Positions 10,127 to 30,025 of a stretch of DNA of 32,000 bases are shown here, in pieces. Position numbers and translations under genes: made by a program. The stretch spans positions 780,001 to 812,000 of the forward strand of contig NZ_CP007536.1 of the NCBI RefSeq assembly GCF_000698785.1, written 5' to 3'. The notes beneath the pieces were generated by a model that saw nothing but the letters and a program-made list of their open reading frames with translations, had not been told where the DNA came from and searched no databases. This DNA is from Nitrososphaera viennensis EN76 (lineage in GTDB: Archaea > Thermoproteota > Nitrososphaeria > Nitrososphaerales > Nitrososphaeraceae). Numbering within the stretch: position 1 is the stretch's first letter; every line of letters begins with the position of its first letter.

Positions 10127-12391
10127 CTAATCCTTTTCTATTTCAAATGCCTTTTCACTTGTAAGACCTGTTAGAATAGTTCTTGCTGCGATTTCCAACT
10201 GACCATCTGAAATCTTCTCGTAATATTGCTTATCACTATCAGTCGGTAGCTTCTCGATAAAATCATCTTGGAGGTATGCATAGAATGCTATCAATAACAC
10301 ATAGCGGTTTTGAATTATGCGCTTGGTAGCCTCCTGGTATTTGCTTCTGCGCAATGCACCGATATACCATTCATTTTCTACAGAAACGTAGATTACAACT
10401 TTGTCGGGAGACTTTTGGACATCTGCGACGTTCTTTTCAGTCCACTTGTTGCTAATGTAGTATTCGTGGTTCCGGTCAACAACCTCGATATAGGGCGCAT
10501 CGGTCTGAATATTGCTGGGCTTTTCCTTTTTCAAAAGAGGTTCTTCTATTACCGAATTCCTGCTATCGGACAGGGATACCTTTTCTGCCGATTCGTTAAT
10601 GGCGTTAAGCTGAATATTGAAAGGAAACTTGGTGAACAGAGGTGCGCCCTCCACCAGCCTTGTTACGATAAATATTCTGCCATTTCTAAAATCCTTTTGA
10701 AAGTATGATATCTTTACAAACTTTTGAGTTTCCTCTGCCAACGAGAAATAAGCGTTATTCCTTGCCAGAAAATTATTTGGTGCATCAGACAATATTTCAA
10801 TCCTTGTTGATTGATTTGGTCTAAAGACCAACGGGTCAGCCTTGTTCATTATCTTGATGAAGGTAGGAAAGTCCTTTAGCGAAACGTATTCTTCTACAAT
10901 TTGCTCTTCTATAGGCGGTTCTCGCTCCGTTTCAGGACTTGCAGGTTTCTTGTCTCCTTCTCCTTTGTTACCACCTTTTACGCCTATTCTGCCAGGCAGG
11001 ATTCTGTTTATCATCTCGGCTAGGTTTCTCCTCATCTCGTCTTTCTCCTTGGAGAAACCTTCGGAAAGAAAGTCCTCCTCACGTTGTCTGTTTAGCTCTT
11101 TTAGCTCCCTTGAATTCGAAAGAATTTCCACGATTGTTTTCTTGATAATTGCGGAACCTTCGCTGGTGATTGATTCCCTGGTCGAAGGGAAAAGGGCACG
11201 TCTTCCTACATCGTTGACCAAGTCGCAATCTATCTGAACTACAAGGTCTTTTTGCAGATAGGGTAACTGACATTCGTTCAAAAACCGCCTTGGCAATACG
11301 GAATGCGACTGACCGTAGTAAGTAACGACAATCGGATAGTCAGGGTCCACGAAAGTCATCTTTTGTGCAACATCTGTCTGTCTTTTGAATAGCCAGTACC
11401 GAAGGATTATTGTCCCATAGTCTATTTCCGTGGAGGGGACTTGGATTTCGTCTCTCCTCTCAATAAGGTCTGACCTGTTGAGTCTATCTCTACTTCCGTA
11501 TATCCGCCTTAGCCGTTCTTGATAGGCTCCGGCTTGCTGGTTTACTATCTTGAAAGGCAAAACAGGGTCAAACAGATAATACTGCAATTTCCCGTATAGA
11601 GTTAGCAAGTTCTGTTTGCCAATCTTGTAGTCTATGTGCCTAACAATGGTGTTAAAATCGATATCCAACGACTTGTCAGGGTTTGTAACGGTAAGGGGCA
11701 AGTTGTCCTCGCTGTTTACAAGGTAAACGTACTTGCCATCTTTTTCGTCTCTCGCTGGCGGCTGGAACTTTATGACAGTAAACGACATCTTGTTACTATC
11801 ATCAAATTTCCTGCTAACGAGAATAGTAAACTCAGAGAAGGCAAAAGTCGTGGAACCGCCTTGACCAAACCTGCCCATCAAGTACCATTTGGTAATCTTA
11901 TTTGACTGGTTAAGAGACAGAATGGTATTCGGAATTTCATCTTTTCGAAGACCTATGCCTCTATCAATAATATCAATTGTCGGAGTTTCGTCGGTATCCC
12001 CATCCCAAAGGATAACGTCAACCCCACTTTCCATTGCCGCTGTTTTCTTTCTCCTCTTGATTGTGTCGGCTATAACTCCTCCTTTGAACCCTAATGCCTT
12101 TTCGGAAAATACTCTAGGAGAACGGATATTCTTTAATTCGGGTCTTTCTTCCGCCAGTCGTTCAAAGGTGGCATCTATACCGTTGGTTATTCTTTCTACA
12201 AGCGAAACTTCTGGATTAGCAGTAAGGTGAACGGTTGCAAAGTTGGTTTCCCTGTCACCTAAAGTCCGCCATCTAACAGAGTCTCCTTTGTTGTTACTTG
12301 AATATAGCCTGTCAAGAATATCAATTACATCACTTCTTGTCCTTGCAACCAAGAGGGACTTTAATGCTCTCAGAGTCGCTTGCTCATTCAA
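10127..12391 (-). CDS. GHKL-superfamily (HATPase_c / Hsp90-MORC-like) ATPase with a ~550-aa uncharacterised C-terminal extension
   Basis: N-box ERITNGIDA (aa 66-74), G1 box IDIIDRGIGL (aa 139-148) and G2 box GRFGQGGS (aa 173-180) occur in canonical order and spacing. TTG start. A TTTATA box on the minus strand lies about 25 nt upstream. Confidence 0.7.
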   Translation of the reverse strand: MNEQATLRALKSLLVARTRSDVIDILDRLYSSNNKGDSVRWRTLGDRETNFATVHLTANPEVSLVERITNGIDATFERLAEERPELKNIRSPRVFSEKALGFKGGVIADTIKRRKKTAAMESGVDVILWDGDTDETPTIDIIDRGIGLRKDEIPNTILSLNQSNKITKWYLMGRFGQGGSTTFAFSEFTILVSRKFDDSNKMSFTVIKFQPPARDEKDGKYVYLVNSEDNLPLTVTNPDKSLDIDFNTIVRHIDYKIGKQNLLTLYGKLQYYLFDPVLPFKIVNQQAGAYQERLRRIYGSRDRLNRSDLIERRDEIQVPSTEIDYGTIILRYWLFKRQTDVAQKMTFVDPDYPIVVTYYGQSHSVLPRRFLNECQLPYLQKDLVVQIDCDLVNDVGRRALFPSTRESITSEGSAIIKKTIVEILSNSRELKELNRQREEDFLSEGFSKEKDEMRRNLAEMINRILPGRIGVKGGNKGEGDKKPASPETEREPPIEEQIVEEYVSLKDFPTFIKIMNKADPLVFRPNQSTRIEILSDAPNNFLARNNAYFSLAEETQKFVKISYFQKDFRNGRIFIVTRLVEGAPLFTKFPFNIQLNAINESAEKVSLSDSRNSVIEEPLLKKEKPSNIQTDAPYIEVVDRNHEYYISNKWTEKNVADVQKSPDKVVIYVSVENEWYIGALRRSKYQEATKRIIQNRYVLLIAFYAYLQDDFIEKLPTDSDKQYYEKISDGQLEIAARTILTGLTSEKAFEIEKD

Positions 12392-12473: not shown

Positions 12474-14066
12474 TTGATGAACATACCCAAAATCATTCCA
12501 AGAACGATGCACCAAATATTCCCTTTTATGGGTAAGGCCCGTAAGCCTCTGCATCAAGGTCCAAAGTTCAGGGCAGAGCCTCTTGTAGCTGTCGTAAGTG
12601 GAGAGATACTCGACAGATACGCAGTAGAGCAGTCGGCGGTTTATGTCGTTTTGGATGAAAACGACGGTGGTAGCAAAGCAAAATACGTAGTCACTGAACC
12701 CTCTTTAGACGAAGAGGAGCAGAGGGTTTATTCGCTTATAATGGAAGGTCTGTACTTCTCGCTGAAGCCTATTGCCAAGACCGAAGACCCACTTCAATAC
12801 ATAGAGGGATACATATGGGAAGTGGCAGAAAATCTAGGACTTGTTGAGCAGCTGGAAAAGGCGTATCAAAAGTACAGATATTTCATTGCAAGGGATGCCA
12901 TCGGTTACGGACCGATAGACATACTGATGAAGGATAACGACGTGGAAGAGATATCGTCAGAAGGCTACGACAAGCCTGTTGCGGTGATGCATCGGCGCTT
13001 TACAGAATACGACTGGATAGACACCAACGTCAGGTTTGCCAGCGAAGACAGCCTTCGTACATACGTCCAGAGGCTGGCTCAGAAAACAGGCAAGAGCGTC
13101 ACCGTCGCTGTGCCATTTGCCGACTCTATGACCTCTGACGGTCACAGGGTTGCAGTAACTTTTGCCGGCGAGGTCACGCTGCCTGGGAGTTCATTTGACA
13201 TCAGAAAATTCCCCAAAGAACCGCTGAGCATTGCACACCTAATAAAGTCAAACACAATGTCTGCGCTGATGGCTGCCTACTACTGGTTGCTTGTAGAGTC
13301 AAAGGGATTTGTGATGATTTTGGGAACCATGGGTTCTGGCAAGACTACGTCACTAAACTCGCTGTCAACAATGATAAACCCGTCTTCAAAGATTGCCACG
13401 ATAGAAGACACACCGGAGCTGCGATTGCCACACACCCACTGGCAACGTTTCAAGACAAGGAGGACCTATTCCATTACAGAGTCAAGGTTTGATGTCGATC
13501 TGATGGATCTCGTTATCCTTTCTCTAAGGTACAGGCCCGATTACGTCATCCTTGGAGAAGTCAGGGGCGCTGAAATCAGGGCGCTGATACAGGCGGCCGC
13601 GATAGGACATTCTGCGCTGTGCACAATGCATGCAGAAAGCCCTGAAGCGGCTCTTGTCAGGATGAGCTCTCCTCCCATGGACGTAAGCCTTGGAGGCAGG
13701 ATGCTGGTCTGGAACTTTCTCATGCTAAACAGGGTCAAAGACAGGCAGGGAAAAGTCATCAGAAGAACAGTATCTTCTACCGAGGTCATTCCTAGAGAGA
13801 ACCTTATGGAATTGAAACAGGTATTTGCATGGAATCCAAGGACAGACAGGTTTGCTCCAGATGGGGACAATGCTGCAGAGCATTTGGTAGAGACAAGTTA
13901 CAGGTTAAAGGAAATTGCAAAGCTTAGGGGCTGGACAGATTGCGAGGTAGTAGATCAATTAAAGGAAAGATGTAATCTGCTTACAGATCTTGTGGATGAA
14001 GACAAGCTGGCATACTCTGATGTCTCTAAAGCAATACAGTCGTTCTATCGAGATAACATAAGATAA
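12474..14066 (+). CDS. Type IV pilus / archaellum-type secretion ATPase (FlaI/PilB/GspE/VirB11 superfamily)
   Basis: The archaeal FlaI-type N-terminal signature is YVVTEPSLDEEEQRVY. Walker A is GTMGSGKTT (aa 284-292). The Walker B/Asp box region is PDYVILGEVRGAE, and the His box is HSALCTMHA. A TTTTTAAT box lies about 25 nt upstream of the ATG at 12477. Confidence 0.85.
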   Translation: MMNIPKIIPRTMHQIFPFMGKARKPLHQGPKFRAEPLVAVVSGEILDRYAVEQSAVYVVLDENDGGSKAKYVVTEPSLDEEEQRVYSLIMEGLYFSLKPIAKTEDPLQYIEGYIWEVAENLGLVEQLEKAYQKYRYFIARDAIGYGPIDILMKDNDVEEISSEGYDKPVAVMHRRFTEYDWIDTNVRFASEDSLRTYVQRLAQKTGKSVTVAVPFADSMTSDGHRVAVTFAGEVTLPGSSFDIRKFPKEPLSIAHLIKSNTMSALMAAYYWLLVESKGFVMILGTMGSGKTTSLNSLSTMINPSSKIATIEDTPELRLPHTHWQRFKTRRTYSITESRFDVDLMDLVILSLRYRPDYVILGEVRGAEIRALIQAAAIGHSALCTMHAESPEAALVRMSSPPMDVSLGGRMLVWNFLMLNRVKDRQGKVIRRTVSSTEVIPRENLMELKQVFAWNPRTDRFAPDGDNAAEHLVETSYRLKEIAKLRGWTDCEVVDQLKERCNLLTDLVDEDKLAYSDVSKAIQSFYRDNIR

Positions 14067-14729: not shown

Positions 14730-16880
14730 ATGGTCAAGGCAGATTCTAGGATCACCTACCTGATAATCGTAGCACTCTTGATAGCATGCTCGTATATAGG
14801 ACTGCATGTATTTGTCCAGTACTCTGCCTCGGGTTTTGTCTACACGCAGATAGCCGGAATTATGCTTGCAGGAATTGGCGTGGGCGGAGTGCTGGTGTTG
14901 CTGACATACGCCATAGAATTATGGAAGAAGCCACAGTATCTGGAATTAAGGCTCACGTGGCAGCCAAATCCCATTCTGGTATCTTACATAGCGTCAGCCG
15001 CCGTCCTTTATTTTGGCATAGGAGGGATGTTTGTGCTGACTCCCGTAAATGAAAACTATGCAGATACACTTGGTCTGGTTCTGACTGGAATCGGCGTCGT
15101 CTCCCTGACGATAACTGCTATTTTCCATTATAGGGGTGCTGCCAAAGCTAGGGGCTCTGGAAAGGGAGCAGGTAAAGAAGTCACAGTAAGGCCATTTGAG
15201 CATAACCTTGCACTGAGGGTAGTATCACGAAACAACATACTGTCAGCTATCTCAAAAGCTATGAGCGCGCATCTGCTGACACCAGAAGTCATCAAGTCTG
15301 GCATGCTGATAAACCCGCAGATCCTCTCAAGCAAGTACGTGTTCCTCTCCTTACTTGCTCTTGTCGCAAGCATCCCGTTAACGGTGGTCGTACTTCTTTC
15401 TTTACAAAGCTACGATGTCCCTTCGTTTCCAGCCCTTCTGTCCCTGCTTGCTCCATTGGCGATGCTAGTGATGCCTTACCTGAAACTAAAAAGTATGGCA
15501 GGGGACAGAAAGCGCGGCATAGAAGACGAGCTGCCGTTCTTTTGCACATATGCGTCAGTAATGCAGAGCGTCGGTCTATCGCTTTACAACAGTTTTGAGA
15601 ACATTGCGTCCAGAAACGTCTTTGCAAATCTGGAGAAAGAAGCACTGATGATACAGAGAAACGTGCAGTTCTTTTTCAAAAACCAAGTAGAGGCCCTGGA
15701 GCAGGCTGGAAGGGTACATCCAAATGAAAAGTTCAGGGGTCTGCTTCTTGGATATACAAGTGAATGGAGGAGCGGCGGGGATACAGTGCATTACCTTGAC
15801 GCAAAGTCAAAGGAACTTCTAAACGATATGCGTTTCAGATGGCAGCGCTACACGGCAATGGTTTCTGACATAGGCGAAGTCATGGTCAGCCTGTTCTTCA
15901 TAATGCCAGTGCTCATACTTACAACGGCATTCGTGTTTCCTTTACAGACCACGGTCATTACAGGAGCGGTTGTGGCTGTGTTGATTCCCCTGCTTACCGC
16001 AGTCGTTTTTATGATGATAAGCAACATGCAGCCAAAGACCTACGATCTAATAGAAGGCAAAACTACTTTCAGTGTAGTAGCAGCGATAGCAAGTTTTGCA
16101 GTAGCCTACTTTTTGTCTCATTCCACAGTCTGGATAGCGCTTGCAACATCCATCATATCCACAGGCGTGTTTTACGGCGCTTGGGTCATCGCGCAAAGAA
16201 GGGAAATAACGCAGGTCGAAAAGGCGCTGCCTCAATTCCTGAGGGATATTACAGAGTACAAAAAGATGGGCTACGACATAAACAGGTCTGTCTTCAAAAT
16301 TGCCGAAGAAAATTTGTACAACGCAACCTTTGACGCACTGCTCAAAAACACGGCAAAGCAGATGCGGATGGGCCTGAGGCTGAGCGACACAGAAATCAAG
16401 GTGAGGAGCTGGCTTGGCAGGCTGACCTTCTTCCTTCTGGGCGAAATTGTCAATAGTGGAGGCGGTACGGCATCTGCACTTGAGACACTGACAAACTTTG
16501 TGAGCAATGTGAATCAGATAAAGAAAGAAGCCAAGAGTACGATGCACCTGTACGAAGTTCTCACCTACCTTACACCGATTGGTCTGGCATTTACCGTCGC
16601 GCTTATGGCAAGTTTGATGACTGCATTCAGCTCGACTGTGGCATCAGCTTCGGAAGTCGGAATCTTGAAGCAGATATCGTCAGTCCCAGACGAATTGATC
16701 CAGACAACAAACATGATGATTGTGGCGGCATCTGCAAGCATGGCGTTTGTAGCAGGAAAGGCAATCGACCTGACTTCAAAAAACACCCTCAGAATAGCCG
16801 TGACCGTTGCTGTTGCAGCGATATCGATTTCCTTGTCAACAGAGTTTGTTTCAGGCATAATACGAATGGTGACAGGATAG
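14730..16880 (+). CDS. FlaJ/TadC/PilC-like polytopic platform protein (T2SS-F family) with an N-terminal 4-TM extension
   Basis: 716 aa with many TM helices and two cytoplasmic helical regions. DELPFFCTYASVMQSVGLSLYNSFENIA and LPQFLRDITEYKKMGYDINRSVFKIA resemble the duplicated T2SSF-domain motifs. It is located downstream of the pilus ATPase. Confidence 0.7.
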   Translation: MVKADSRITYLIIVALLIACSYIGLHVFVQYSASGFVYTQIAGIMLAGIGVGGVLVLLTYAIELWKKPQYLELRLTWQPNPILVSYIASAAVLYFGIGGMFVLTPVNENYADTLGLVLTGIGVVSLTITAIFHYRGAAKARGSGKGAGKEVTVRPFEHNLALRVVSRNNILSAISKAMSAHLLTPEVIKSGMLINPQILSSKYVFLSLLALVASIPLTVVVLLSLQSYDVPSFPALLSLLAPLAMLVMPYLKLKSMAGDRKRGIEDELPFFCTYASVMQSVGLSLYNSFENIASRNVFANLEKEALMIQRNVQFFFKNQVEALEQAGRVHPNEKFRGLLLGYTSEWRSGGDTVHYLDAKSKELLNDMRFRWQRYTAMVSDIGEVMVSLFFIMPVLILTTAFVFPLQTTVITGAVVAVLIPLLTAVVFMMISNMQPKTYDLIEGKTTFSVVAAIASFAVAYFLSHSTVWIALATSIISTGVFYGAWVIAQRREITQVEKALPQFLRDITEYKKMGYDINRSVFKIAEENLYNATFDALLKNTAKQMRMGLRLSDTEIKVRSWLGRLTFFLLGEIVNSGGGTASALETLTNFVSNVNQIKKEAKSTMHLYEVLTYLTPIGLAFTVALMASLMTAFSSTVASASEVGILKQISSVPDELIQTTNMMIVAASASMAFVAGKAIDLTSKNTLRIAVTVAVAAISISLSTEFVSGIIRMVTG

Positions 16881-17007: not shown

Positions 17008-18837
17008 GTGTTGTTGGATCCAGCGCAGGCAATCCTCGCATTCCTGATGGTCGTCACTGCTGCCAGTGGCATCGTTGTTGACAGCAATAGTACCGACAGT
17101 ACTTCACAATCTGACTCCTCGCCACCAGTGCCGATAGCACCGGACCCTGTGTCGATTATGGCAGATGCCTTCGGACAGATGTTTGGTCTGACAGTAAAGG
17201 CGTTCACAGACGGCCTGGCAGGAGCTTTTGGCTGGATCCTTGACAGCGTCGGTGGCGAACAGGGCGTCTATTATTTTCTTGTGAAACTGCCGGTGGCCGA
17301 CCCATCAGTTAACAACGGCGGCGTCGAGGCTGCGATACTTGAAGTATATCCTTTGATTCAGAATGTTGCCCTTGTTTTCTTTGTGTTTGTGCTTTTGATG
17401 GCGGGCCTGAGCTATGCTGTCGAGAACTTTGGAATATTGAAAGAAGGGACCGCATCGCATATCCTTTCCAGCAGCCTGTTTACGCTTGTTGTACTTTTCC
17501 TGATTCTCCCAATCTACAATACAACTGCCACAATGTTCAACGTGATAACCGATCCATCTTCTGGGATGATACTGAAGAATGGGGAGATAACAGGGCTTTT
17601 GAAGGCAGCAATCAGCCCGGAGTTTGTCAACGTTCCTCAGGGCATCGTGCAGACCATACTGTCTGTGTTTGTGTTCATACTGGTTCTTGTTGAGCTGCTT
17701 GCCATCGCGATTCTTGGAACTCTCAGGATATTCTTTGTAGGAGCCATCCTGGTCATGATGCCCTTGATTCTGATTTTGAGGTTGATTCCTCTTACCAAAG
17801 GCGTAGCAGATTCGCTGATAGAGATGGAGATAGGGCTGATACTCGCCAGTCTTATAGCGGCGATATTTCTGAAGTTCGGCTATGAAGTTGCAACAGAATG
17901 GGGTGGCCTGCTATCTATCCTTGCAGCATTTGGAACTCTGGTCGCAACTGCTCTGATGCCGACTGTACTTGCTCCCAAAGTTGGCAGCGTGTTTTCAAGC
18001 ACTGTCAGCATGGTCACGACGGCTGGAACAGGGGCTGCCGTCATCGGTGCAATGACTGGAGGTGGGGCGCTGGCTGCCGGTGCATCGATTATGCAGACTG
18101 CAGGTGGCTTTGGCAAGGTGTTTGGTGCATCTACGAAGTTTGCAGGCGGAAGCCCGTTATCAGACATCGGCAACAGGGTTGTAGGATTCACAGACGGTCT
18201 GAGGATAATGGCACCGGCTATGACGCTTGGTGGAGCAAAAGGCTACGGTAAAGGTCTGCTGGAAGCCACCAAAGGCATTCGAATAGGTCCAAATGCATTG
18301 CCGGACAGAATCCAGGTTTCAAGACAGTCAATGCAAGGTCTCGATTCTATCAGAAACAGTGCACCTTACAAAACAGCATTGCTGCGTATGCAAGGGACAA
18401 TATCAGATTTGGCGTTCAAACCTGCAGATGGAGAGAGCGCAAAACATGGGTGGCAGTACATCCAGTCAATCTCTGACATGGATGATTCCAGAATAGCAGA
18501 AAGGCTTGTAAGAGTACTAGGACAACCTTCTCTTGCCAACAGACCAACTGAAACTGCGAAGACATTCCGCGACACTGTGATTGCGTTGAAGGCCCATCCA
18601 CAACTGGCGAGCAGAGTGGCATTGCACTTGAAAAGTTTTGAGGAACAAGGTTCTCCTACAAAAGAAAATGTTGCAAAGTTAATTGATTCCAGAAGTTCAT
18701 TTCAGAGGCAATTGAATCATGAAGTTACGAAATTACATCTAAAGAAACGTGCCAGTGAAAGCAACATGCGCATAAAAATGCAGGATTCTTATTCTGAACT
18801 GTTTACAGCCTTGTTTGGAGAAGCAAAGAAAGAGTGA
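17008..18837 (+). CDS. Large polytopic membrane protein with a Gly/Ala-rich segment; candidate VirB6/TrbL-like channel component
   Basis: It has a signal-like N-terminus, at least 6 hydrophobic helices (aa ~110-330), a G/A-rich stretch (TTAGTGAAVIGAMTGGGALAAGASIMQTAGGFG) and a soluble C-terminal tail. The function is inferred only from topology and its position next to VirB3/VirB4-like genes. Confidence 0.45.
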   Translation: MLLDPAQAILAFLMVVTAASGIVVDSNSTDSTSQSDSSPPVPIAPDPVSIMADAFGQMFGLTVKAFTDGLAGAFGWILDSVGGEQGVYYFLVKLPVADPSVNNGGVEAAILEVYPLIQNVALVFFVFVLLMAGLSYAVENFGILKEGTASHILSSSLFTLVVLFLILPIYNTTATMFNVITDPSSGMILKNGEITGLLKAAISPEFVNVPQGIVQTILSVFVFILVLVELLAIAILGTLRIFFVGAILVMMPLILILRLIPLTKGVADSLIEMEIGLILASLIAAIFLKFGYEVATEWGGLLSILAAFGTLVATALMPTVLAPKVGSVFSSTVSMVTTAGTGAAVIGAMTGGGALAAGASIMQTAGGFGKVFGASTKFAGGSPLSDIGNRVVGFTDGLRIMAPAMTLGGAKGYGKGLLEATKGIRIGPNALPDRIQVSRQSMQGLDSIRNSAPYKTALLRMQGTISDLAFKPADGESAKHGWQYIQSISDMDDSRIAERLVRVLGQPSLANRPTETAKTFRDTVIALKAHPQLASRVALHLKSFEEQGSPTKENVAKLIDSRSSFQRQLNHEVTKLHLKKRASESNMRIKMQDSYSELFTALFGEAKKE

Positions 18838-19619: not shown

Positions 19620-20033
19620 CTACCTCCTTGCACCCACTCTTTCGATCTGGACGTTATCGATACCATCGAACTCCGGGTCTGCACCGGTAACTAGCTTTGA
19701 CCTTAAAGTTTTTGCTGTTGCAGCTGCAAAAGCATCGGCCAAGGACAGCGAATGGTTTGCTTTCAACATGGCCGCTTCTTTCCATAATGCGTTATCTTTT
19801 ACAGAAACTATCTTGACACCAAAGCTCCTGACGTTTCTTTCCTTCTCCTCCGCCACTTTCTTGCTCTTTCTGCCAAGGATATAGTATAGTTCTGCCAGGT
19901 TAACGACATTCATGTATCCCTTTATCTTCCTGTCAAGAACCTGCTTGAGCAGGCCTGCAACATGTTCTGAGCCTTCCTCGCCCATGTAGAGGATAAGCAG
20001 GGCCTGAGTATCAAGTACTATGTTACTGCTCAC
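19620..20033 (-). CDS. vapC: PIN-domain toxin VapC
   Basis: IVLDTQALL (N-terminal Asp), NLAELYY (Glu), SLADAFAAATA (Asp) and LVTGADPEFD (C-terminal Asp) occur in the typical order. It overlaps the upstream antitoxin gene by 11 nt. Confidence 0.85.
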   Translation of the reverse strand: MSSNIVLDTQALLILYMGEEGSEHVAGLLKQVLDRKIKGYMNVVNLAELYYILGRKSKKVAEEKERNVRSFGVKIVSVKDNALWKEAAMLKANHSLSLADAFAAATAKTLRSKLVTGADPEFDGIDNVQIERVGARR

Positions 20034-20301
20034 TGCTTGATTTGCCGCCTCTTCTTAACAACTTCTTTTCTCTTTTAGCTTCCTCTGACCGGGCCTCCTC
20101 GATTAGCTCCTTGGACGTCTTGCCCTTGAAGAGCTCCTTGAGAGAACCTTTCTCCATCAGAGGGTCCGGAACCGGCTTCAGAAGCACACCTTCCTCCGTG
20201 TCCACGGCAAGGGCCTTTTTCCCTATCTTGTGCTTGTCTCTTAACTCCTTTGGTATTGTAGCCTGACCCTTCTTCGTTACTGTAACTACAGTCTCTACCA
20301 T
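20023..20301 (-). CDS. vapB: AbrB/SpoVT-fold antitoxin VapB
   Basis: VTVTKKGQATIPKELRDKHKI is the swapped-hairpin AbrB/MazE-type motif, followed by a charged C-terminal tail. Confidence 0.8.
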   Translation of the reverse strand: MVETVVTVTKKGQATIPKELRDKHKIGKKALAVDTEEGVLLKPVPDPLMEKGSLKELFKGKTSKELIEEARSEEAKREKKLLRRGGKSSSEQ

Positions 20302-20899: not shown

Positions 20900-21601
20900 A
20901 TGCCTGAAGTGATAAGGTCGCTATGGTTTGAAGAGATAGGCTTCATTCATGAAAAGTTCTTTGACACGCCCATGGGAAAATTGACGGTAAGGCAGGTTGT
21001 CATAGTCTTTGTCTTTGGCATCTCTGCGTGGGCGGCATTTAACAGTGTAGGTGATGACATGCTAAAGGTTGCCATAACCAGCCTTCTTGTAATACTTGGC
21101 CTTGCATTTGCATTCCAGAGAATAAAGACCTTGACGCCGGAGCAGTCCATGATGTTTGCGCTATTTGCCAAAAGAATCGATGTTGGATCTGCAAGGAAGG
21201 AGAGCGCGGTACCGCCTTTTTCCACGCCGTCTGCGAGCGCAGGACAAGGTGGTACAGAAACCTTTGACATTTCTGTGCTGGATGCCGGCGATGACACCCA
21301 CGATACTCAGATACAGAAGCTGGTGGTCCTTGTTAGAGATCCCACGACCGGTAGCCCTTTGCCCAACAAGGGATGCGAGATACTGGTTGACGGTAAGAGT
21401 GCGGGAAAAAGATTAACAGACGAGGAGGGATTTCTCACCATCCCTTTTGTACCCGAGAAGCCGGGCATTAACACGATTGAAGTAAAACCAGAAGGGTATG
21501 CGGCAATTGTAAAGAGCATAACAGTCGACGTGCAGTTGCCGCAGCCGCGACAAGGTGGGCGGTTGCATGCTGCCAAGACCGGGCAGGGGATACAGAATTG
21601 A
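20900..21601 (+). CDS. VirB3/PrgI-like two-TM protein fused to a C-terminal Ig/CarboxypepD_reg-like domain
   Basis: EKFFDTPMGKLTVRQVVIVFVFGISAWAAF plus a second TM resembles the PrgI/VirB3 pattern (short cytoplasmic N-terminus, G-x-L-T-x-R-Q, two TM helices). The C-terminal part (VVLVRDPTTGSPLPNKGCEILVDGKSAGKRLTDEEGFLTIPF) looks like a beta-sandwich. Its stop overlaps the VirB4-like start (TTGA). Confidence 0.5.
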   Translation: MPEVIRSLWFEEIGFIHEKFFDTPMGKLTVRQVVIVFVFGISAWAAFNSVGDDMLKVAITSLLVILGLAFAFQRIKTLTPEQSMMFALFAKRIDVGSARKESAVPPFSTPSASAGQGGTETFDISVLDAGDDTHDTQIQKLVVLVRDPTTGSPLPNKGCEILVDGKSAGKRLTDEEGFLTIPFVPEKPGINTIEVKPEGYAAIVKSITVDVQLPQPRQGGRLHAAKTGQGIQN

Positions 21602-23481
21602 ACAATCCCGCCGGCTTTCTGACAGAATTATCGTGCAAAGACCGTTTCAAGTACATCTATGAAGTGCAGCCACTGAACTTTGTAATGCTGCCCAATTCGA
21701 AGCAGCAGGAACTTGTCGAGAGGTTCAGGCAGTTTCTCAATTCATTGAACAGCCGAATCCGACTTGTAGCCAAGAAGAGCAGCAAGGCAATTCCTATTGG
21801 CGACGGCTCATACCAAATGCAGTTCTACCGGTATTTTGTTGAAAGTGAGGAAAACATCGATGACAGGCTGTCAGGTTTCAGCCTGCTGTACAACAGAATT
21901 TCAGAAATTCCATCATATACAGTCGTGAGAAAGATGAGCGACAGGATAATACTCCCTGAAGGAAAGATGATCAGGACATTTACCCTGTACAAGCTGTCGA
22001 GCACTCTGGTCGAGGGTTTTGTTAGCGAGACGTACGGCATTGCCGACGAGGTTTCGATAGTAATTGTCCCAGTAATTCAGGAGCAGGCTACAGCAAAGAT
22101 GAACAAATACACGAAGTTCCTCAGCGGAATGATCCTTGCAGACCAGCAAAAGCGCAGAACATCACCTTACGAACTTGTCCAGAGGCATACGATGGCGCAG
22201 CAGACTCTGGAGCTCTTGACAAACGGCCAGACAAGATTGTTCAAGATAATAGTAAACTTTGTTGTCGGCGGAAAAGACAGAAAGGATCTAAACAGGAATG
22301 TGAAACTGCTAAAGAACACGCTGCAGGCCAGGCTGCTCTATCTCGACAGTCCGAGGTTTGTTCAAGGGCACCTGCTTGCCGGGAATCTGGGAAAGAGGCT
22401 TGTTGTAGATACGACTACTGCTGCTACGCTCTTTCCATTCGTGTCTGCCGACATCGTCGAATTGCCGGATGGCGTATTCCTAGGGGCAAACAAGCTCACC
22501 GGTGCTCCAGTCATTTACGACGTGTTCATGCATGACAACTATAACATATCGACTCTGGGCACAAGCGGCAGCGGCAAGTCGTTTTCAACAAAGATAATTG
22601 TGAGCAGGATGCTCCAGCGAAATCCTGATGCCGCCCTCTTTGTCTTTGACCCAGAAAACGAGTACATAAAGCTCGGAAACGTATTGGAAGCCAATGTTGT
22701 TAAATTTGATCCGCACTCAGATATGGGTCTGGATCCTCTGAAGATCTATTCTTCGATAGACGCTTCGGAGATAATCGCATCGATAACCAGCCTGCCGCAA
22801 GACTACCACGCCACGCTTCGCACCATTGCAAATAAAGCGGACGACATACAAGCGCTCTACAACAGCTGTCCTAGGAGCATGCAAGGCTATCTGAAAGATC
22901 TGGTTGATGATGGCACTCTGGCTCATGTTTTCAGAGGAAAACCGGTAGAGTTCACAGGCAGGATGATATTCTCGATGAAAGACATTGAAAGCAGCATCGA
23001 AAAGAACCTACTTTCCCTGCTGCTCTTTGGAAAGGTATGGAACATGATAAACGACGAATCACATTTGCCCAGGGCAGTACAGAAGATAGTCGTCGTAGAC
23101 GAAGCATGGCTTTACTTGGCAATTCCTGCCGCAGCCAGATTTCTGGAGAGGACCGCAAGGCTTGGAAGGAAGAGAAATGTCTGCTTCATAATCAACACCC
23201 AGAGGGCGGCAGATGTCCTTGGAGAGTCTGACGGAAAGCCGGGACTTGGAAGGTCGATAATTGAAAATAGCGCAACCAAGGTTCTGCTCAGGCAGGACGA
23301 GCTGTCTGCAGATGTTGTTGCAAGGGCTTTTGGCCTGTCTGAAAGGGAAAGGGAGCATCTTGTTGAGCTGGATTCAGGAAATGGGTTTTTGATAGCGCAG
23401 AATGTGCATGTTCCAATAAAGTTCATAGCATCGGAAGAGGAAGAGCAGATATTCACAACCAGGCCGTCGGACCAAGTATGA
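21598..23481 (+). CDS. VirB4/TrbE/CedB-like conjugation ATPase
   Basis: Walker A is GTSGSGKSFSTK (aa 321-332). Walker B is KIVVVDEAWLYL. The downstream RKRNVCFIINTQRAADV matches the conserved T-Q motif region of VirB4/TraC-type ATPases. The N-terminal half is non-ATPase, as in VirB4. Confidence 0.75.
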   Translation: MNNPAGFLTELSCKDRFKYIYEVQPLNFVMLPNSKQQELVERFRQFLNSLNSRIRLVAKKSSKAIPIGDGSYQMQFYRYFVESEENIDDRLSGFSLLYNRISEIPSYTVVRKMSDRIILPEGKMIRTFTLYKLSSTLVEGFVSETYGIADEVSIVIVPVIQEQATAKMNKYTKFLSGMILADQQKRRTSPYELVQRHTMAQQTLELLTNGQTRLFKIIVNFVVGGKDRKDLNRNVKLLKNTLQARLLYLDSPRFVQGHLLAGNLGKRLVVDTTTAATLFPFVSADIVELPDGVFLGANKLTGAPVIYDVFMHDNYNISTLGTSGSGKSFSTKIIVSRMLQRNPDAALFVFDPENEYIKLGNVLEANVVKFDPHSDMGLDPLKIYSSIDASEIIASITSLPQDYHATLRTIANKADDIQALYNSCPRSMQGYLKDLVDDGTLAHVFRGKPVEFTGRMIFSMKDIESSIEKNLLSLLLFGKVWNMINDESHLPRAVQKIVVVDEAWLYLAIPAAARFLERTARLGRKRNVCFIINTQRAADVLGESDGKPGLGRSIIENSATKVLLRQDELSADVVARAFGLSEREREHLVELDSGNGFLIAQNVHVPIKFIASEEEEQIFTTRPSDQV

Positions 23482-23667: not shown

Positions 23668-24063
23668 TTGTTTGTTGACGGTGCAATAACAGGTCTACTC
23701 TCGGCTCCGGCACTTGCCGTGTGGACGATGATTTCCCTCGCAGCTTCGTTGTTCCTGAGTCACAGGCTCACCTTTGTCAGGGGAGGCTCTGAGCAGGAAC
23801 AGGCAAAGGGACAGAGGATCATAGTTGGAGGAATACTTGGAGGTGTCGTGATGTACCTTGCACCCTACCTTGCCGCATGGCTGACAGGCATTGACTACAG
23901 AAATCCTCCTGCCAATCTACCGCCCCAGCTGGTATCGATGGTAGGAAACCTTCTGACTATGATCCAGTACATAGGAGTCGCGGTGATAATTGGTGGGATA
24001 ACGTGGGGCGCCATAGAACTCACTAGGAATAGACACACCTCAACAGGCGAACGACGAAAGTAG
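23668..24063 (+). CDS. Small hydrophobic protein (131 aa; signal-like segment plus two long hydrophobic helices); candidate VirB2/TrbC/CedA1-type conjugative pilin
   Basis: The call rests on topology only: ALAVWTMISLAASLFL, then IIVGGILGGVVMYLAPYLAAWL and VGNLLTMIQYIGVAVIIGGITWGAIEL, with a basic C-terminus. TTG start, uncertain. Confidence 0.4.
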   Translation: MFVDGAITGLLSAPALAVWTMISLAASLFLSHRLTFVRGGSEQEQAKGQRIIVGGILGGVVMYLAPYLAAWLTGIDYRNPPANLPPQLVSMVGNLLTMIQYIGVAVIIGGITWGAIELTRNRHTSTGERRK

Positions 24064-25658: not shown

Positions 25659-28361
25659 ATGGGATTATTCGAACGCATCAGAAAGAAGCCGGACGTAGAG
25701 AAGGAAGGCAAAATTCATGAAGAGTTTGACATTTCAAAATATCTTGAACCTAACACAGAACCGATATACCTGCTGGGCGTTGACAGTAACACCGGCGAGA
25801 GGAAGGGCCTGTACAAGAGCGACAGGGGACACACGCTCATAATAGGAAGGACGCAGTACGGCAAGACCACTCTCATAGAAACGCTGATACTTGAGCATGT
25901 ACAGGAAAACGAGACATTTGTCTACATTGACCCGTCCGGCGATTCTGTCAACAAAATATTGGCGTTGATACCTGACGAGAAGAGAAAGAACACGATACTT
26001 ATCGACCCTATGACAATACACACGCACGGCAGGGTGGTCAAGATTGATTTTCTGGAATATTCAAATAGCCTGTCACGTCTGAAAGTTGCGCAGGGCTTCA
26101 TTGACGCTGTGAAAAAGCTCTCAGGCGGGATGTGGGGGCCTCTGCTTGAAAGGATAATGAGAAACACCATCCTGCTTCTCATAGACCAGGAGAAAGGTTC
26201 CACCGACATAACTGACTGCTATTACGTGATAAACGATGTCGAGTACAGAGAGCGACTAATGAGAAACTGCTCAAACAAAGACGTCGTCAACTTTTTTGTC
26301 AACGACTTTGGCAGGATAAGGCCAGAGTCGCTTGAGCCAATCCTGACAAGGCTCAACACCATCCTTGTCGACCCTCTGGTAAAAGAGATGTTCCGGACCA
26401 AGAGGAAAGATGGCGCGGTAGTCAAGACTCTGGACCTGAGAGACGCCATAGACGGCGGCAAATTCGTCCTGGTCAACCTTTCAAAGGCAAGGCTTGGCGA
26501 CATGTCTGCGTTTATCGGCAGCCTGCTCTTGGACAAGATATTCCAGACTGCGATAAGCAGGGCAGACGAGCGAGTGAAGGAGAAAAGGAAGGCATGTTAC
26601 CTGTATGTAGATGAAGCCCACACTTTTGTAACAGACGCAGTGATAGACATATTGCGCGAGGTAGCAAAGTACCGCCTCTATTTCACTCTGGTTACCCAGT
26701 ATCCGTCCGGGTTTACCGAAGAGATAAAGAAAGCAGTATTTGGGAACTGCTCTACAATCATAACGTTCTCTGTAGGTCCTGACACTGCAAAGGAGATAGC
26801 ACCTTTCTTTGTTCCTTATGACACACAGACGATAATGCTCCTTCCGAGGTACGAGTTCATGGTAAGCACCAAGATGAAGGGGATACCGCTAAAACCATTT
26901 TCACTTTCGACGCATCACACGCAGATCAAGGATTTGGAATTGATCAAAAGGAGCGAAGAATGCATGGCAGAAAGCCTGCGTATATACGGACAGGAGGTAA
27001 GTTCGGACCCTCTGCAAGACAAGGCTGAGAGCAATGAGGTTATTGTTATCGCTCCGAAGAACGCTGCCTTTCCAAGGCCGCCATTCTTCACAACGCCAAT
27101 AAAGTGGTTTATCCAGACAAGGCTCTTTTTTGAGAGTAATGGAATGACTATGAAAGCCCTCTTTGAACAGGCAGTATCATCGCCCCATCACCACAAACCC
27201 TACGATTCAGGATTTCAGAAAGTAAAGGCAGTCTTGCACGAGATGGTAAGAGAAGGGCTGGTGCAGACTATTCAGGTAACTGCAGACGATCAATCAGATA
27301 AAAGGAGGTTCGCATTTATGCTGACGGAGTCAGGGCTGAAGCCTTTCTACGAAATACCAAAGGGTGCAAGAGTTGGTGGAAACATACATCTCAACTGGAT
27401 GGACCTCTTCCTCCACGCTTTCTGGAGGATGGGATGGTACTGCATTGCAGACAACGGGCGTCTCAGCGAAGGGCATTCGGACATCTATGCATTCTCGCCA
27501 AAACTGTCAGAGAACGGTTCAAAGCACGACCCGGACGAATGGGAAATCCCGCCGGCCTGGGCTGTGGAGTTTGAGGTCTACCCAGAACGACATCCAAACA
27601 GGACAATCGAGAACTATCTCCGAAATGCGTCCAGCAGGATAAAGACTGTCTTCATAACAGACAGCGAAGAGAGGAAAAAGAGGATACTGCAGGCATTGAA
27701 AGAGCACAGCATTTCTGCCTATGTGCCGGTTTTGCTTGTAAACAGGGCTGCAACTCATTCAGATGTAGAAAAAGTGGTCCATGCATTAACCGCAATCCAA
27801 GAACCTGTATTACTGGAACAAGCAATAGCCGAGGCAGAATTGCCCGATGTGAAAGAGCATGGAAATGAGAGCGTAAGGGAGGTAGAAATTATAGAAAAAC
27901 AAAATCTGACAGATGGAGGCCAGCAAAGAACAACATCGAGTGCGGCACACGTGGCTCCTCCAGTAAACATCAAAACAGAATCTGAAGGAAGGGATATTGA
28001 AGAGCAAGATTCAGGGGATGCAGGCAATGCAAGTATCCCTGGCGAAAATGAAGAAAAGACGCCTGATGAGGGCGGAGAGGAAGAAGACACCGCCACGACA
28101 GTTATGGAGATGCTGTATCAGGAACTTGCAGACGACGAATCCCTGGTCAGGATTCTTCGCGCAGTAAAGGAAAGTCCGGGTCTGAAATCGTCAGACATTG
28201 TAGCCAGACTGGGAATACCCCGGATGTCGTTTATGCGCAAGTCAGCAAAGCTGAAAGAACTGGGGTTGATATTTACAAAGGAAAGGATGCCAGGTTATGC
28301 GATAACTGACAGAGGGATGACGATTCTTGACAAGATCGACGAAAGGGATGATGGCAAGTAA
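25659..28361 (+). CDS. VirD4/TraG/FtsK-HerA-type coupling ATPase fused to wHTH, PD-(D/E)xK-like module, acidic linker and C-terminal wHTH
   Basis: Walker A is GRTQYGKTT (aa 63-71). Walker B is CYLYVDEAHTF (aa 313-323). The middle wHTH-like region spans aa ~480-560. The nuclease-like region has H-L-N-W...SDIYAF...WAVEFEV (aa ~575-690). An acidic low-complexity stretch spans aa ~730-815. The C-terminal MarR/TrmB-like wHTH is ILRAVKESPGLKSSDIVARLGIPRMSFMRKSAKLKELGLI...GYAITDRG. Confidence 0.7.
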   Translation: MGLFERIRKKPDVEKEGKIHEEFDISKYLEPNTEPIYLLGVDSNTGERKGLYKSDRGHTLIIGRTQYGKTTLIETLILEHVQENETFVYIDPSGDSVNKILALIPDEKRKNTILIDPMTIHTHGRVVKIDFLEYSNSLSRLKVAQGFIDAVKKLSGGMWGPLLERIMRNTILLLIDQEKGSTDITDCYYVINDVEYRERLMRNCSNKDVVNFFVNDFGRIRPESLEPILTRLNTILVDPLVKEMFRTKRKDGAVVKTLDLRDAIDGGKFVLVNLSKARLGDMSAFIGSLLLDKIFQTAISRADERVKEKRKACYLYVDEAHTFVTDAVIDILREVAKYRLYFTLVTQYPSGFTEEIKKAVFGNCSTIITFSVGPDTAKEIAPFFVPYDTQTIMLLPRYEFMVSTKMKGIPLKPFSLSTHHTQIKDLELIKRSEECMAESLRIYGQEVSSDPLQDKAESNEVIVIAPKNAAFPRPPFFTTPIKWFIQTRLFFESNGMTMKALFEQAVSSPHHHKPYDSGFQKVKAVLHEMVREGLVQTIQVTADDQSDKRRFAFMLTESGLKPFYEIPKGARVGGNIHLNWMDLFLHAFWRMGWYCIADNGRLSEGHSDIYAFSPKLSENGSKHDPDEWEIPPAWAVEFEVYPERHPNRTIENYLRNASSRIKTVFITDSEERKKRILQALKEHSISAYVPVLLVNRAATHSDVEKVVHALTAIQEPVLLEQAIAEAELPDVKEHGNESVREVEIIEKQNLTDGGQQRTTSSAAHVAPPVNIKTESEGRDIEEQDSGDAGNASIPGENEEKTPDEGGEEEDTATTVMEMLYQELADDESLVRILRAVKESPGLKSSDIVARLGIPRMSFMRKSAKLKELGLIFTKERMPGYAITDRGMTILDKIDERDDGK

Positions 28362-28606
28362 AGTACCGGAACAACTTTTGTCGTGCGGCGATGCCAATTT
28401 CCGCCTTTTATACCTCTAGTGTTCTGAACTAGTAGTTATCAAAAACAACAAGAAATAATCTCCCCCAACCGGCCGAACGAACGACCAGTACGTTTCAAAA
28501 AATGCATGCTGCGTGTGCGCATGCACCACCGGAGTGGCAAGGACCGCCACAAATTTTTCCTAGAGTAAATTTTCAGCAAGCATCTGCAGATGTGCGTTTT
28601 TGCATG

Positions 28607-28758
28607 AAAAGTGGTACCAGTGGTACCAAAAACAGGAAAAGTAGTAGGCGAAATTGGTACCAGAGCACGGTGTTTCTGTAAAAAGTGGTACCAGTGGTAC
28701 CAAAACTCGACCAAAGTGGTACCAGCGCACGCAAAACTGGTACCACTGGTACCAAAAC
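28607..28758. repeat. Iteron array with GGTACC cores: three double units and two single units
   Basis: There are 8 GGTACC hexamers between 28613 and 28753. The 25-mer AAAAGTGGTACCAGTGGTACCAAAA is identical at 28607-28631 and 28681-28705. The third double unit (28733-28757) carries the core in inverted orientation (GGTACCACTGGTACC). The single units GGTACCAG(A/C)GCACG lie at 28656 and 28718. Confidence 0.9.
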
Positions 28759-29108
28759 CAACGGCAGAATCAGAAAAGGACGGCGCCTATAGCAACGGCA
28801 AGTACTGAAAAACAGTTCGGCAAGAGACGACCCTTTCAGTGACCGAGTCAACAGGTTCAAACCATCAATACCCAGAAAAGGCCGACTCGGCGGGATGGTG
28901 TGGAACCAATGCAAGCTGGACAAAACTGACTCTAGCGTTTCGAGAGAGACGACCGCATCTACGCTACCATAACAGTCTGGAATTCAGTGCCAGATTTCTT
29001 TTGCTGTTGCGTTGCAATTCGAAGAGATGTAGTGTGGACTATCCTGGAGCGTGGGAGTTGGCGGGCTAGCTTGCAAACACGGCCCTGACACAACAAGGAG
29101 GTGATAAG

Positions 29109-29417
29109 ATGGCTGTGAAAAATATGAACTACAACGAGGACGGTGACAGCAGGAGGAACGGAACAGGTGGTGACGACGAAATCCTGTGCAAAATGTGGAT
29201 TGATGCAACGACAGAAACGAACTTTGCTGTAAACATGGCAGTAAGGAAGTACAGGAACTCCAAAGAACAGATAGACTATCTGGTAACGCTGGACAGTATC
29301 TTACTCAGGTACCAAGAGATAGTCACACAGACAGTAGCCGAACATGGCAGGCAGGCACAGGCAATTGCAGAAGAGATAAGCGGTCTGGCAGTGGCTGGAG
29401 GTGACTTCATGCTATGA
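29109..29417 (+). CDS. Hypothetical small protein (102 aa)
   Basis: The strong SD AAGGAGGTGA (29095-29104) lies 4 nt before the ATG. The stop overlaps the next start (ATGA). Confidence 0.6.
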   Translation: MAVKNMNYNEDGDSRRNGTGGDDEILCKMWIDATTETNFAVNMAVRKYRNSKEQIDYLVTLDSILLRYQEIVTQTVAEHGRQAQAIAEEISGLAVAGGDFML

Positions 29418-29851
29418 CCGGCAGCAACATCGACCGTAGGGAAGAAAAGTCTGGAATCAATCAAAGAAATCGAAGACAAACAACAACAAGAACCGGAACC
29501 GGAATGACCATGGAGCAGCTTATCCGAGAAACAAGGAAGGAGGTTTACAGAGCGCAGAAAAAAGAAGCAATCCCGAATAAAAACAAGGAGAAAAGTACCG
29601 TACGAAACTCAATGCAGCAGCAACAGGTCATTCCACACGAAATGCAGAGGTATCTGACCAGTGCAGTTGTGCAGGCAGATGAAAGTACGTTGACTGCACA
29701 CCTGCAGGAATTCTGCAGCAAGATTCCATCCGGCAGCTACAGGGTAAAGGTCCTTGTCAGAAAAAACAACAAGGTAACTGTAAGGATGACGTACAGAGGA
29801 GAACAACAGCCGTTACAACAACCAGACATCAGTACCCCGGCAAGCCCCTAG
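29414..29851 (+). CDS. Hypothetical basic/Gln-rich protein (145 aa)
   Basis: ATGA overlap with the upstream ORF suggests translational coupling. No family recognised. Confidence 0.5.
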   Translation: MTGSNIDRREEKSGINQRNRRQTTTRTGTGMTMEQLIRETRKEVYRAQKKEAIPNKNKEKSTVRNSMQQQQVIPHEMQRYLTSAVVQADESTLTAHLQEFCSKIPSGSYRVKVLVRKNNKVTVRMTYRGEQQPLQQPDISTPASP

Positions 29852-30025
29852 GATTTTTGTAACAATCTAGGGTGCAAGCCGTCAGCCAGCCTTTAAAACA
29901 TGCGTCAAAATCCTGGCTAGAACCATCAAGTTGATGGTGGGTTGGAGGTACATTGATGCAGGTATTTCTGTTCTGCAAAGAGCAGCGTGCCGGGCATCAA
30001 GACAAAACACTGGGAGGTGTTTAAA

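Follow-up and report, generated by a model that had tools for sequence, protein, structure and literature searches.

A palindromic repeat array that switches together with the C-terminal winged helix of a VirD4-like ATPase: a candidate DNA recognition locus in a thaumarchaeal integrative-conjugative element

Hexameric motors carrying a tethered winged helix that reads an 8-bp word are known from FtsK, whose gamma domain reads the FtsK-orienting polar sequences (KOPS), and from SpoIIIE with the SpoIIIE recognition sequences (SRS). With respect to conjugation, TraB of Streptomyces recognises the 8-bp repeats of the clt locus through its C terminus (PMC4447253). In archaea, neither a relaxase nor an origin of transfer (oriT) is known for the integrative-conjugative elements (ICEs) of thaumarchaea (PMC6563490) or for the Sulfolobus plasmids (PMC9899855), and here we describe a locus that bears on how archaeal conjugative elements choose and process the DNA that they transfer. 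It lies in a stretch of 32,000 nt from the soil archaeon Nitrososphaera viennensis EN76 (contig NZ_CP007536.1, positions 780,001 to 812,000; hereafter the window), which lies inside the 75.6-kb ICE NitVie-E3 (genome 744,889-820,479; gene coordinates from PMC6563490, Appendix S1). An array of short repeats at genome 808,612-808,754, downstream of the gene for a coupling ATPase, is, judged from its sequence, the best current candidate for the site at which an archaeal conjugation machinery recognises its own DNA. In the publication on NitVie-E3 no relaxase candidates were found, and neither an oriT nor the array is mentioned (PMC6563490). Scans of the window and of the downstream genes with Pfam, PHROG and NCBIfam likewise gave no relaxase family, in line with a preliminary description of the window, which had noted that no relaxase was visible.

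The array (window coordinates here and below) consists of the following parts:

28612-28754, no strand: repeat array of eight TGGTACCA units in the order double-single-double-single-double.
28612-28628: double 1, TGGTACCA-G-TGGTACCA, in a 25-mer identical to that of double 2.
28655-28662 and 28717-28724: the two single units, in the context GGTACCAG(A/C)GCACG (at 28656 and 28718).
28686-28702: double 2, TGGTACCA-G-TGGTACCA, in a 25-mer identical to that of double 1.
28738-28754: double 3, the exact reverse complement of doubles 1 and 2.

On re-reading, this layout agrees with the preliminary description, which had listed eight GGTACC hexamers at 28613-28753 in the same order, two identical 25-mers and a third double in reverse complement. 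The true repeat unit is the 8-mer TGGTACCA, which is longer than the hexamer; the three doubles are 17-bp palindromes, and successive units are 9, 34, 31, 9, 22, 21 and 9 nt apart. GGTACC occurs 12 times in the window compared with 3.55 expected, with 8 of the 12 at 28613-28753. All eight matches to TGGYRCCA in the window (expectation 2.1) fall within the 143 bp of the array, a number reached by none of 100 shuffles, and a further 21 kb of NitVie-E3 upstream contain no match. GGTACC, like GGYRCC, is a word recognised by restriction enzymes; a longer protein site is indicated by the conservation of the flanks T...A(G) and by the co-variation described below.

By comparing the contigs of nine public proteins with 81-87% identity to the ATPase, seven arrays were obtained in all, every one from a Nitrososphaera-like element: those of the window, L001, L005, L006, L013, L003 (L003/L004 being NitGar-E3 of Nitrososphaera gargensis) and L009. 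The array is accordingly present in six related loci, which answers one of the checks proposed in the preliminary description. No further loci came from scans of genome contigs with the ATPase (no confirmed relatives), of metagenomes or of viral contigs, and a scan of genome contigs with a 27-mer from an invariant stretch downstream of the array (see below) gave 0 matches.

The seven arrays fall into two classes. Class A (window, L001, L005, L006 and L013) has 5-8 TGGTACCA units in conserved order, half of one double being lost in L001, and L013 having just double-single-double with the variant TGGTACCAGGGGTACCA. In class B (L003/L004 and L009) the architecture is kept and every unit reads TGGCACCA, with TGGTGCCA as the second half of the doubles, which remain 17-bp palindromes after the switch. 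Within class A there are 0 substitutions in the unit columns, and between the classes 17 of 64 unit columns vary as opposed to 81 of 102 spacer columns, the 17 being made up of the switch itself, the deletion in L001 and one C-to-T change occurring twice in L009. Spacer lengths, and with them the spacing of the units, also differ between the classes. By these comparisons the units are discrete, strongly constrained elements with free spacing that change in concert, and such a concerted change requires either a common trans-acting partner or mutual pairing.

A different repeat was seen in L019 (4973-5283), where TTCAGTAA doublets form a 26-nt perfect inverted repeat with arms 259 nt apart, about 130 nt after the gene for P0011. 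It was not counted as support, P0011 (32% identity) having no C-terminal winged helix-turn-helix (wHTH) domain and the repeat possibly being a transposon end.

The ATPase gene and the domains of its product, in part as modelled with AlphaFold2 (AF2), are as follows:

25659-28361, + strand: coupling ATPase of the TraG/VirD4 family, 900 aa (NVIE_RS04625; identical to WP_075054245.1 / AIC15172.1).
aa 1-470: P-loop core of a type IV coupling protein (T4CP), Pfam TrwB_AAD_bind and AAA_22 above cut-off.
27096-27353, + strand (aa ~480-565): middle winged helix, weak HTH_27 match, topology H-H-H-E-E in the AF2 model of residues 470-900.
27366-27833, + strand (aa 570-725): alpha/beta middle domain, modelled alone with AF2 at a predicted local distance difference test score (pLDDT) of 86.7.
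aa ~728-811: acidic disordered linker of ~90 residues (AF2).
28104-28361, + strand (aa 816-900): C-terminal MarR-like wHTH, with helix 2 at aa 844-851, recognition helix at 855-867 and wing at 871-882.

The protein, which is annotated as arCOG04816 (PMC6563490, Appendix S1), had previously been called FtsK/VirD4-like. While it is indeed of the coupling type found in type IV secretion systems (T4SS), its Pfam scores are those of a VirD4/TrwB-like and not of an FtsK/TraB-like ATPase, as TrwB_AAD_bind reaches 23.3 bits (cut-off 20.5) and FtsK_SpoIIIE stays with 18.9 bits under its 24-bit cut-off. Walker A (GRTQYGKTT) and Walker B (LYVDEAH) motifs are present, the best sequence match in the PDB is the T4CP DotL/IcmO, and in tblastn searches the protein matches haloarchaeal and bacterial T4CPs on plasmids with up to 28% identity. 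On reading the first 60 residues by eye, without a transmembrane predictor, no hydrophobic segment was seen.

The C-terminal wHTH, which had also been proposed before, is supported by the AF2 fold and by Foldseek matches to the MarR-type structures MexR, SlyA, MarR and CggR. The assignment is based on these, since the Pfam matches of aa 826-897 are all sub-threshold (MarR_2, 23.3 vs 27 bits; HTH_24, 19.1 vs 21.9 bits; HTH_45, 20 vs 25.5 bits). Members of the MarR family bind palindromes of 16-20 bp as dimers. In the alpha/beta domain, residues H577, D598, D608, E637, E639, H645 and R648 are invariant even in homologues of ~30% identity, and its top Foldseek matches in the PDB are MUS81, VRR_NUC, BsaWI, AgeI and Nt.BspD6I. 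As all of these have E >= 0.06, the nuclease fold is to be taken as a lead and not as a finding; the domain is possibly PD-(D/E)xK-like and may represent a built-in nuclease in a system without a relaxase.

The two classes differ in one continuous segment. Fixed differences between class A (window, L001, L005, L006) and class B (L003, L009), counted per 60-nt bin, are essentially zero at 25920-27839, amount to 7-30 at 27840-28319 and to 13-21 at 28440-28679, and return to about zero at 28800-29879, which delimits the following cassette:

27840-28760, + strand: class-specific cassette of ~0.9 kb, comprising the acidic linker, the C-terminal wHTH, the 5′ part of a non-coding block (see below) and the array.

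Its edges are the boundary between the alpha/beta domain and the linker on one side and the end of the array on the other, and its sole coding part is the acidic linker and C-terminal wHTH of the ATPase, in which all 23-28 class-fixed amino acid differences lie after aa ~733. Those within the wHTH are:

aa 849-850, helix 2: A849P, R850K.
aa 852-853, turn: G852D, I853M.
aa 856-863, recognition helix: M856R, S857T, A863L.
aa 877, wing: M877V.
aa 884: D884E.

Seven of them fall in helix 2, the turn and the recognition helix, and none of the class-fixed residues of the wHTH varies inside its class, with five sequences compared for A and five for B. TGGTACCA is paired with a recognition helix reading ARLGIPRMSFMRKSA in five loci and TGGCACCA with one reading PKLDMPRRTFMRKSL in two, so that the co-variation of array and wHTH among relatives, which the preliminary description had suggested looking for, was found. 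The middle winged helix, which it had named as another candidate reader, has no class-fixed differences and does not co-vary with the array. Zero class-fixed differences were also found in the five proteins encoded after the array (p102, p145, p115, p172b and p79), and 0-2 in the pilin, p172a and p334.

Class B loci furthermore carry an insertion between the stop codon of the ATPase gene and the non-coding block, of 0.55 kb in L009 (2437-2990) and of 6.3 kb in L003 (12701-19060), the latter coding for a HEAT protein, two helicases and a pRiA4-ORF3-like gene. After the insertion the block restarts ~10 nt upstream of a TATA-like box, and in N. gargensis the array stays with this box and the downstream operon, apart from the ATPase gene. 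The position directly downstream of the ATPase gene given in the preliminary description is therefore true of the window but not conserved; adjacency of gene and array is not required, and their association persists across 0.55-6.3 kb of class B cargo.

The site itself, from the ATPase stop to the TATA-like box (window 28362-28397), is an insertion hotspot in class B (L003, L009, L007, L008 and L014) with a cargo of HEAT proteins, superfamily 2 (SF2) helicases, a pRiA4-ORF3-like gene, Mrr-like nucleases, a PIN-MazE pair and an insertion sequence (IS).

With regard to the partner of the array, the C-terminal wHTH is singled out because it is, with the linker, the only coding sequence in the cassette, because its DNA-reading helix changes and because its fold is one that binds such palindromes. 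It is in our view somewhat probable that the wHTH binds the array, for whatever purpose. That the array is the cognate DNA target of this domain in the sense of a clt/oriT-like recognition locus is our best explanation and is put forward tentatively. With M856R the recognition helix acquires an arginine at its start, and the site changes from T:A to C:G; a change of base contact would be expected to look like this. Each 17-bp double, TGGYACCA-S-TGGTRCCA, would then bind two MarR-like wHTH domains with two-fold symmetry, and the singles would be half-sites. As the wHTH domains would hang on ~90-residue acidic linkers from a hexameric VirD4-like motor, and three palindromic doubles are available, the array might engage up to six tails. 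It would thereby capture the motor at one unique place on the excised ICE and mark the latter as a substrate for the VirB4/VirB6/pilin apparatus, in a role parallel to that of clt for Streptomyces TraB, or of oriT and relaxosome in bacteria, in a system without a recognisable relaxase. We infer physical binding, its stoichiometry and a service to DNA transfer beyond regulation from this pattern.

The surroundings of the array are relevant to other explanations. The gap of 747 bp in which it was described is non-coding as stated; it is not empty intergenic DNA but a conserved block of ~700 bp, with a mean identity of 84% in an alignment of six loci (A1). The block and the gene following it contain:

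28398-28412, + strand: TATA-like box TTTCCGCCTTTTATA, conserved letter for letter in 7 loci except for one C/T; the block starts here.
28405-28412: CTTTTATA, the box of the preliminary description.
28503-28525, + strand: hairpin (inverted repeat) TGCATGC-N9-GCATGCA, stem kept in 7/7 loci, loop variable.
28534-28559, + strand: hairpin GTGGC-N7-GCCAC (28534-28550), followed by a run of five T.
28581-28592: 12-bp palindrome CATCTGCAGATG.
28823 and 28945: 10-bp direct repeat AGAGACGACC, only partly conserved across loci.
28839-28909, + strand: 71-nt invariant stretch, identical in the six loci of A1, with the inverted repeat CCGAGTC...GACTCGG inside.
28925-29108, + strand: predicted structured leader (~180 nt), ending in a strong Shine-Dalgarno sequence AAGGAGGTGA before the next gene.
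29109-29417, + strand: 102-aa gene p102 (NVIE_RS04630), first of a conserved downstream operon of unknown proteins.

All flanking items reported previously (CATCTGCAGATG, TGCATGC-N9-GCATGCA, AGAGACGACC and CTTTTATA) are found at their coordinates, and the TATA-like box and the GCATGC hairpin are kept throughout. The CATCTGCAGATG palindrome was rejected as a functional element; it is not conserved in L005, L013, L003 and L009 and is therefore probably incidental. The sequence of the TATA-like box, TTTCCGCCTTTTATA, occurs a single time in the window, and since the box is 6.3 kb away from the ATPase stop in L003 it is part of the block and not of the 3′ end of the ATPase gene; it presumably acts as a promoter. 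The hairpin and T run at 28534-28559 look like a terminator on the + strand, and the hairpin shows one compensatory pair change in L009, from C-G to U-A.

Two further observations concern the block as such. The TATA-like box is followed after 90-150 nt by two conserved hairpins and five T (28398-28559), a stretch that differs between the array classes and could be a small RNA gene of ~120 nt or an attenuated leader. The invariance of 28839-28909 stands out, as the flanking genes are just 75-90% identical at the protein level across the same six loci; no conserved open reading frame runs across it. A coding function of the block was rejected, because the sole frame open across the invariant stretch has no conserved start and is broken in L006, and because of indels that are not in multiples of three. 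A tRNA gene was not found, and no Rfam family matched.

The location of the array between the TATA-like box and p102 raises the question of a regulatory operator array in a long 5′ leader, at which the bound ATPase tail or another regulator would act as a roadblock or switch without any choice of substrate. Expression of the downstream genes would thereby be coupled to the state of the transfer machinery, which is compatible with a recognition of the array by the wHTH. In line with this, the block starts with an invariant TATA-like box that moves with it in L003, the terminator-like hairpin and five T lie between this box and the array, and the start of p102 has a strong Shine-Dalgarno sequence and no TATA-like box nearby. 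In addition, the leader fold is far more stable on the + strand, RNAalifold giving a long-range helix at 28925-29108 with -51 kcal/mol compared to -29 kcal/mol on the - strand, and MarR-type domains are typically transcription regulators. However, the array does not cover a core promoter: the TATA-like box precedes it by 200-350 nt, and the start codon follows after 355 nt. Moreover, eight sites are many for an operator, and no co-variation with the array is seen in any of the five downstream proteins. A regulator domain on a hexameric transfer motor is also more easily explained by the capture of a substrate, and we regard the operator as unlikely.

Mutual pairing of the units would be provided for by an RNA-level element, in which the doubles form hairpins with 7-bp stems and 3-nt loops in a transcribed leader or a non-coding RNA and the singles serve as alternative pairings; the concerted change would then reflect the maintenance of base pairing or recognition by an RNA-binding factor. 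On the + strand the changes in the doubles are indeed all structure-neutral: T4-A14 is replaced by C4-G14, loop positions 9-10 vary (double 3 of the window and L013), and G3-C15 changes to G3-U15 twice in L009. The second single and double 3 are able to form an alternative helix of 11 bp, conserved hairpins (one with a compensatory change) precede the array and a predicted structured leader follows it, and a strong positive AT skew runs through the block as it does in the flanking + strand genes. However, the singles have no local partner and yet are equally conserved and change from T to C in step with the doubles; therefore, maintenance of stems is not sufficient as an explanation. The same paired changes are predicted by a symmetric dimer site, the covariation in the leader helix (28925-29108) is no higher than in shuffled controls, Rfam gives no match, and the array comes only after the terminator-like signal at 28534-28559. 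An RNA-level element is thus considered improbable.

Returning to the array as the target of the ATPase tail, several points weigh against it. Preceded by a TATA-like box and followed by a strong Shine-Dalgarno sequence, the array resides inside an apparent transcribed leader, a position that fits regulation at least as well as transfer, and every change in the doubles is also neutral for the + strand hairpin. The ATPase is outside the FtsK/TraB family, and a movement of double-stranded DNA by it would be an assumption. The spacing of the units is neither conserved nor helically phased. The co-variation is between two states of physically linked sequences, effectively one evolutionary switch, and a single segment of ~0.9 kb imported from a diverged relative could suffice for this pattern, with no functional coupling involved. 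Moreover, it is seen in only seven arrays, the class B wHTH loci L007, L008 and L014 ending before the array. For proteins encoded at distances above 10 kb, namely the TFIIB homologue, the ArsR and Sta1-like regulators and Cdc6, the comparison extends to n=1 at most. Given the leader-like position and the hairpin-neutral changes, the regulatory and RNA readings keep some probability and may coexist with DNA binding. A more far-reaching version, in which the ATPase would carry a sequence reader and maybe, in its middle domain, a DNA processing activity and so replace, as one protein, the bacterial relaxosome, the locus would be the first cis-acting DNA recognition locus of an archaeal T4SS-type conjugative element, and the specificity, exchangeable with the ~0.9-kb cassette, would define transfer-incompatibility classes of ICEs, is doubtful at present.

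Other DNA-binding proteins of the ICE have to be considered as partners too, and the remaining genes of the window are therefore given here:

Window start: TFIIB homologue (3′ part), overlapping the ParB-like gene by 17 nt.
716-1825: ParB-like gene (ParB_N).
Between the ParB-like gene and the FlaI-type ATPase: archaeal pilins and a 1704-aa surface protein.
10127-12391, - strand: GHKL/HSP90-like protein 1.
12474-14066: FlaI-type ATPase.
14730-16880: TadC.
17008-18837: VirB6-like protein.
19620-20301: PIN-MazE pair.
21598-23481: VirB4-like protein (identical to AIC15168.1).
23668-24063: T4SS pilin.
31421 onward: GHKL/HSP90-like protein 2, 767 aa (full length in L001, 15764-18067).

The overlap of the TFIIB and ParB-like genes (55-1825) fits a TFIIB-ParB operon reported to be specific to thaumarchaeal ICEs, and the element-encoded TFIIB could be the factor reading the unusual TATA-like box at 28398-28412. 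The two GHKL/HSP90-like proteins are large ICE proteins with N-terminal ATPase regions of this type (HATPase_c_3, weak NCBIfam HSP90 matches). The slot between VirB6 and VirB4, which here holds the PIN-MazE pair, is occupied by AbiEi/AbiEii in L001 (2931-4844) and L005 (2432-4351), and it appears that defence or addiction cargo is exchanged at this fixed place.

Since NitVie-E3 and NitGar-E3 each encode Cdc6 (PMC6563490), the array might also be the replication origin of the ICE, with the doubles as boxes similar to the mini-origin recognition box (mini-ORB) bound by the element's Orc1/Cdc6 homologue. In class A the doubles have TACCAGTGGTA at their centre, which agrees with the Pyrococcus mini-ORB core TTCCAGTGGAA (PMC1904270) in 9 of 11 positions; in class B they have CACCAGTGGTG. 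The sequence preceding the cdc6 gene of the ICE is GC-rich and without repeats, and the origin is therefore not obviously located there. However, the TTCC and GAA motifs that are perfectly conserved in ORBs (PMC1904270) are absent from the doubles of both classes, and an AT-rich unwinding element is lacking, the lowest GC content in 50-nt windows over 28200-29300 being 36%. The cdc6 gene is 30 kb from the array in NitVie-E3 and ~52 kb in NitGar-E3, and the cassette holds the wHTH of the ATPase and not cdc6. With one sequence per class, the wing of Cdc6 differs between N. viennensis and N. gargensis while its recognition helix VREYLLDLSRIGFLD is identical in both. A replication origin thus has a low probability in our judgement.

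Clusters of palindromes of 16-17 bp are typical of parS-type sites. The array resembles such a cluster and the ICE has a gene for a ParB_N protein that shares an operon with the TFIIB homologue, which would allow for a partition (centromere-like) site bound by this protein. However, with ParB homologues allotted to elements by the length of their contigs, the HTH stretch of the class A proteins P0080 and P0084 is the same as that of P0077, the only class B ParB, the ParB of the window is 87% identical to the class B protein but 74-78% to those of class A, with a ParB tree that cuts across the classes, and the array is 27 kb away from parB. ParB was rejected as the binding partner on these limited data, as its HTH does not follow the switch, and a partition site is very improbable.

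NitVie-E3 and its genes have already been published, while the array, its two specificity classes and the cassette of wHTH and array are not described in the literature searched. The principle, i.e., short repeats read by a winged helix on a DNA transfer motor, is of a known kind (Streptomyces, FtsK); the setting is new in that it comprises an archaeal T4SS, a VirD4-type protein, inverted pairs and a swappable cassette. The locus also offers a small testable pair, a domain of 85 residues and an array of 143 bp, and brings its own control in the form of a natural specificity variant. If the tail of the ATPase does read the array for transfer, this would define the substrate recognition step of archaeal conjugation and provide a T4SS coupling protein that reads DNA sequence directly. 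The construction of genetic tools for ammonia-oxidising archaea, of which we currently know none, would likewise gain a portable mobilisation signal.

Compared with known systems, the array differs from iteron-type plasmid origins, which have regular direct repeats of ~17-22 bp beside a rep gene, in its irregular spacing and in having no adjacent rep gene. With archaeal ORB and mini-ORB sites it shares a palindromic CCAGTGG core in several copies, without the TTCC/GAA motifs, the AT-rich unwinding element and the adjacent orc1/cdc6 gene. The operators of the MarR family are likewise palindromes of 16-20 bp for wHTH dimers, and the fold of the domain matches; here, however, the domain is the tail of a 900-aa motor and not a free dimeric repressor, and its putative sites lie off the core promoter. 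In contrast to KOPS and SRS, which are dispersed, polar, chromosome-wide signals orienting translocation, a single local cluster with no sign of a genome-wide skew is found. As in bacterial oriT regions, inverted repeats occur in a cis site that is unique and adjoins transfer genes, among them those for a T4CP, VirB4 and a pilin machinery. However, a bacterial oriT works with a relaxase and a nic site, no relaxase was found here, and bacterial T4CPs reach oriT via the proteins of the relaxosome and have no sequence-specific domain of their own.

There is also a likeness to the clt loci and TraB proteins of the Streptomyces plasmids pSVH1, pIJ101 and pJV1, in which repeated 8-bp words occur in non-coding DNA near the gene for a hexameric transfer ATPase whose C-terminal winged helix is credited with the recognition, and a relaxase is not involved (PMC4447253). 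Here, TGGYACCA is present in 5-8 copies in the 7 loci, with adjacency to the gene broken by the class B insertions, and the reader is a predicted one. Whereas TraB is an FtsK/SpoIIIE-family pump acting alone, without a T4SS, the ATPase of NitVie-E3 is VirD4/TrwB-like and accompanied by VirB4, VirB6, a VirB2-like T4SS pilin, FlaI, TadC and a type IV pilus with its pilins. The repeats of clt are direct, as opposed to mostly inverted pairs here, and their binding and cis-requirement have been demonstrated, where the present case is known from sequence. The parallel to TraB and clt drawn in the preliminary description consequently holds for the C-terminal wHTH and the 8-bp repeats near the gene, but not for the family of the ATPase or for transfer free of a T4SS. 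Membership of the TraB/clt family is not claimed; we propose instead that the array and the ATPase are a functional analogue of clt and TraB on a VirD4-type protein.

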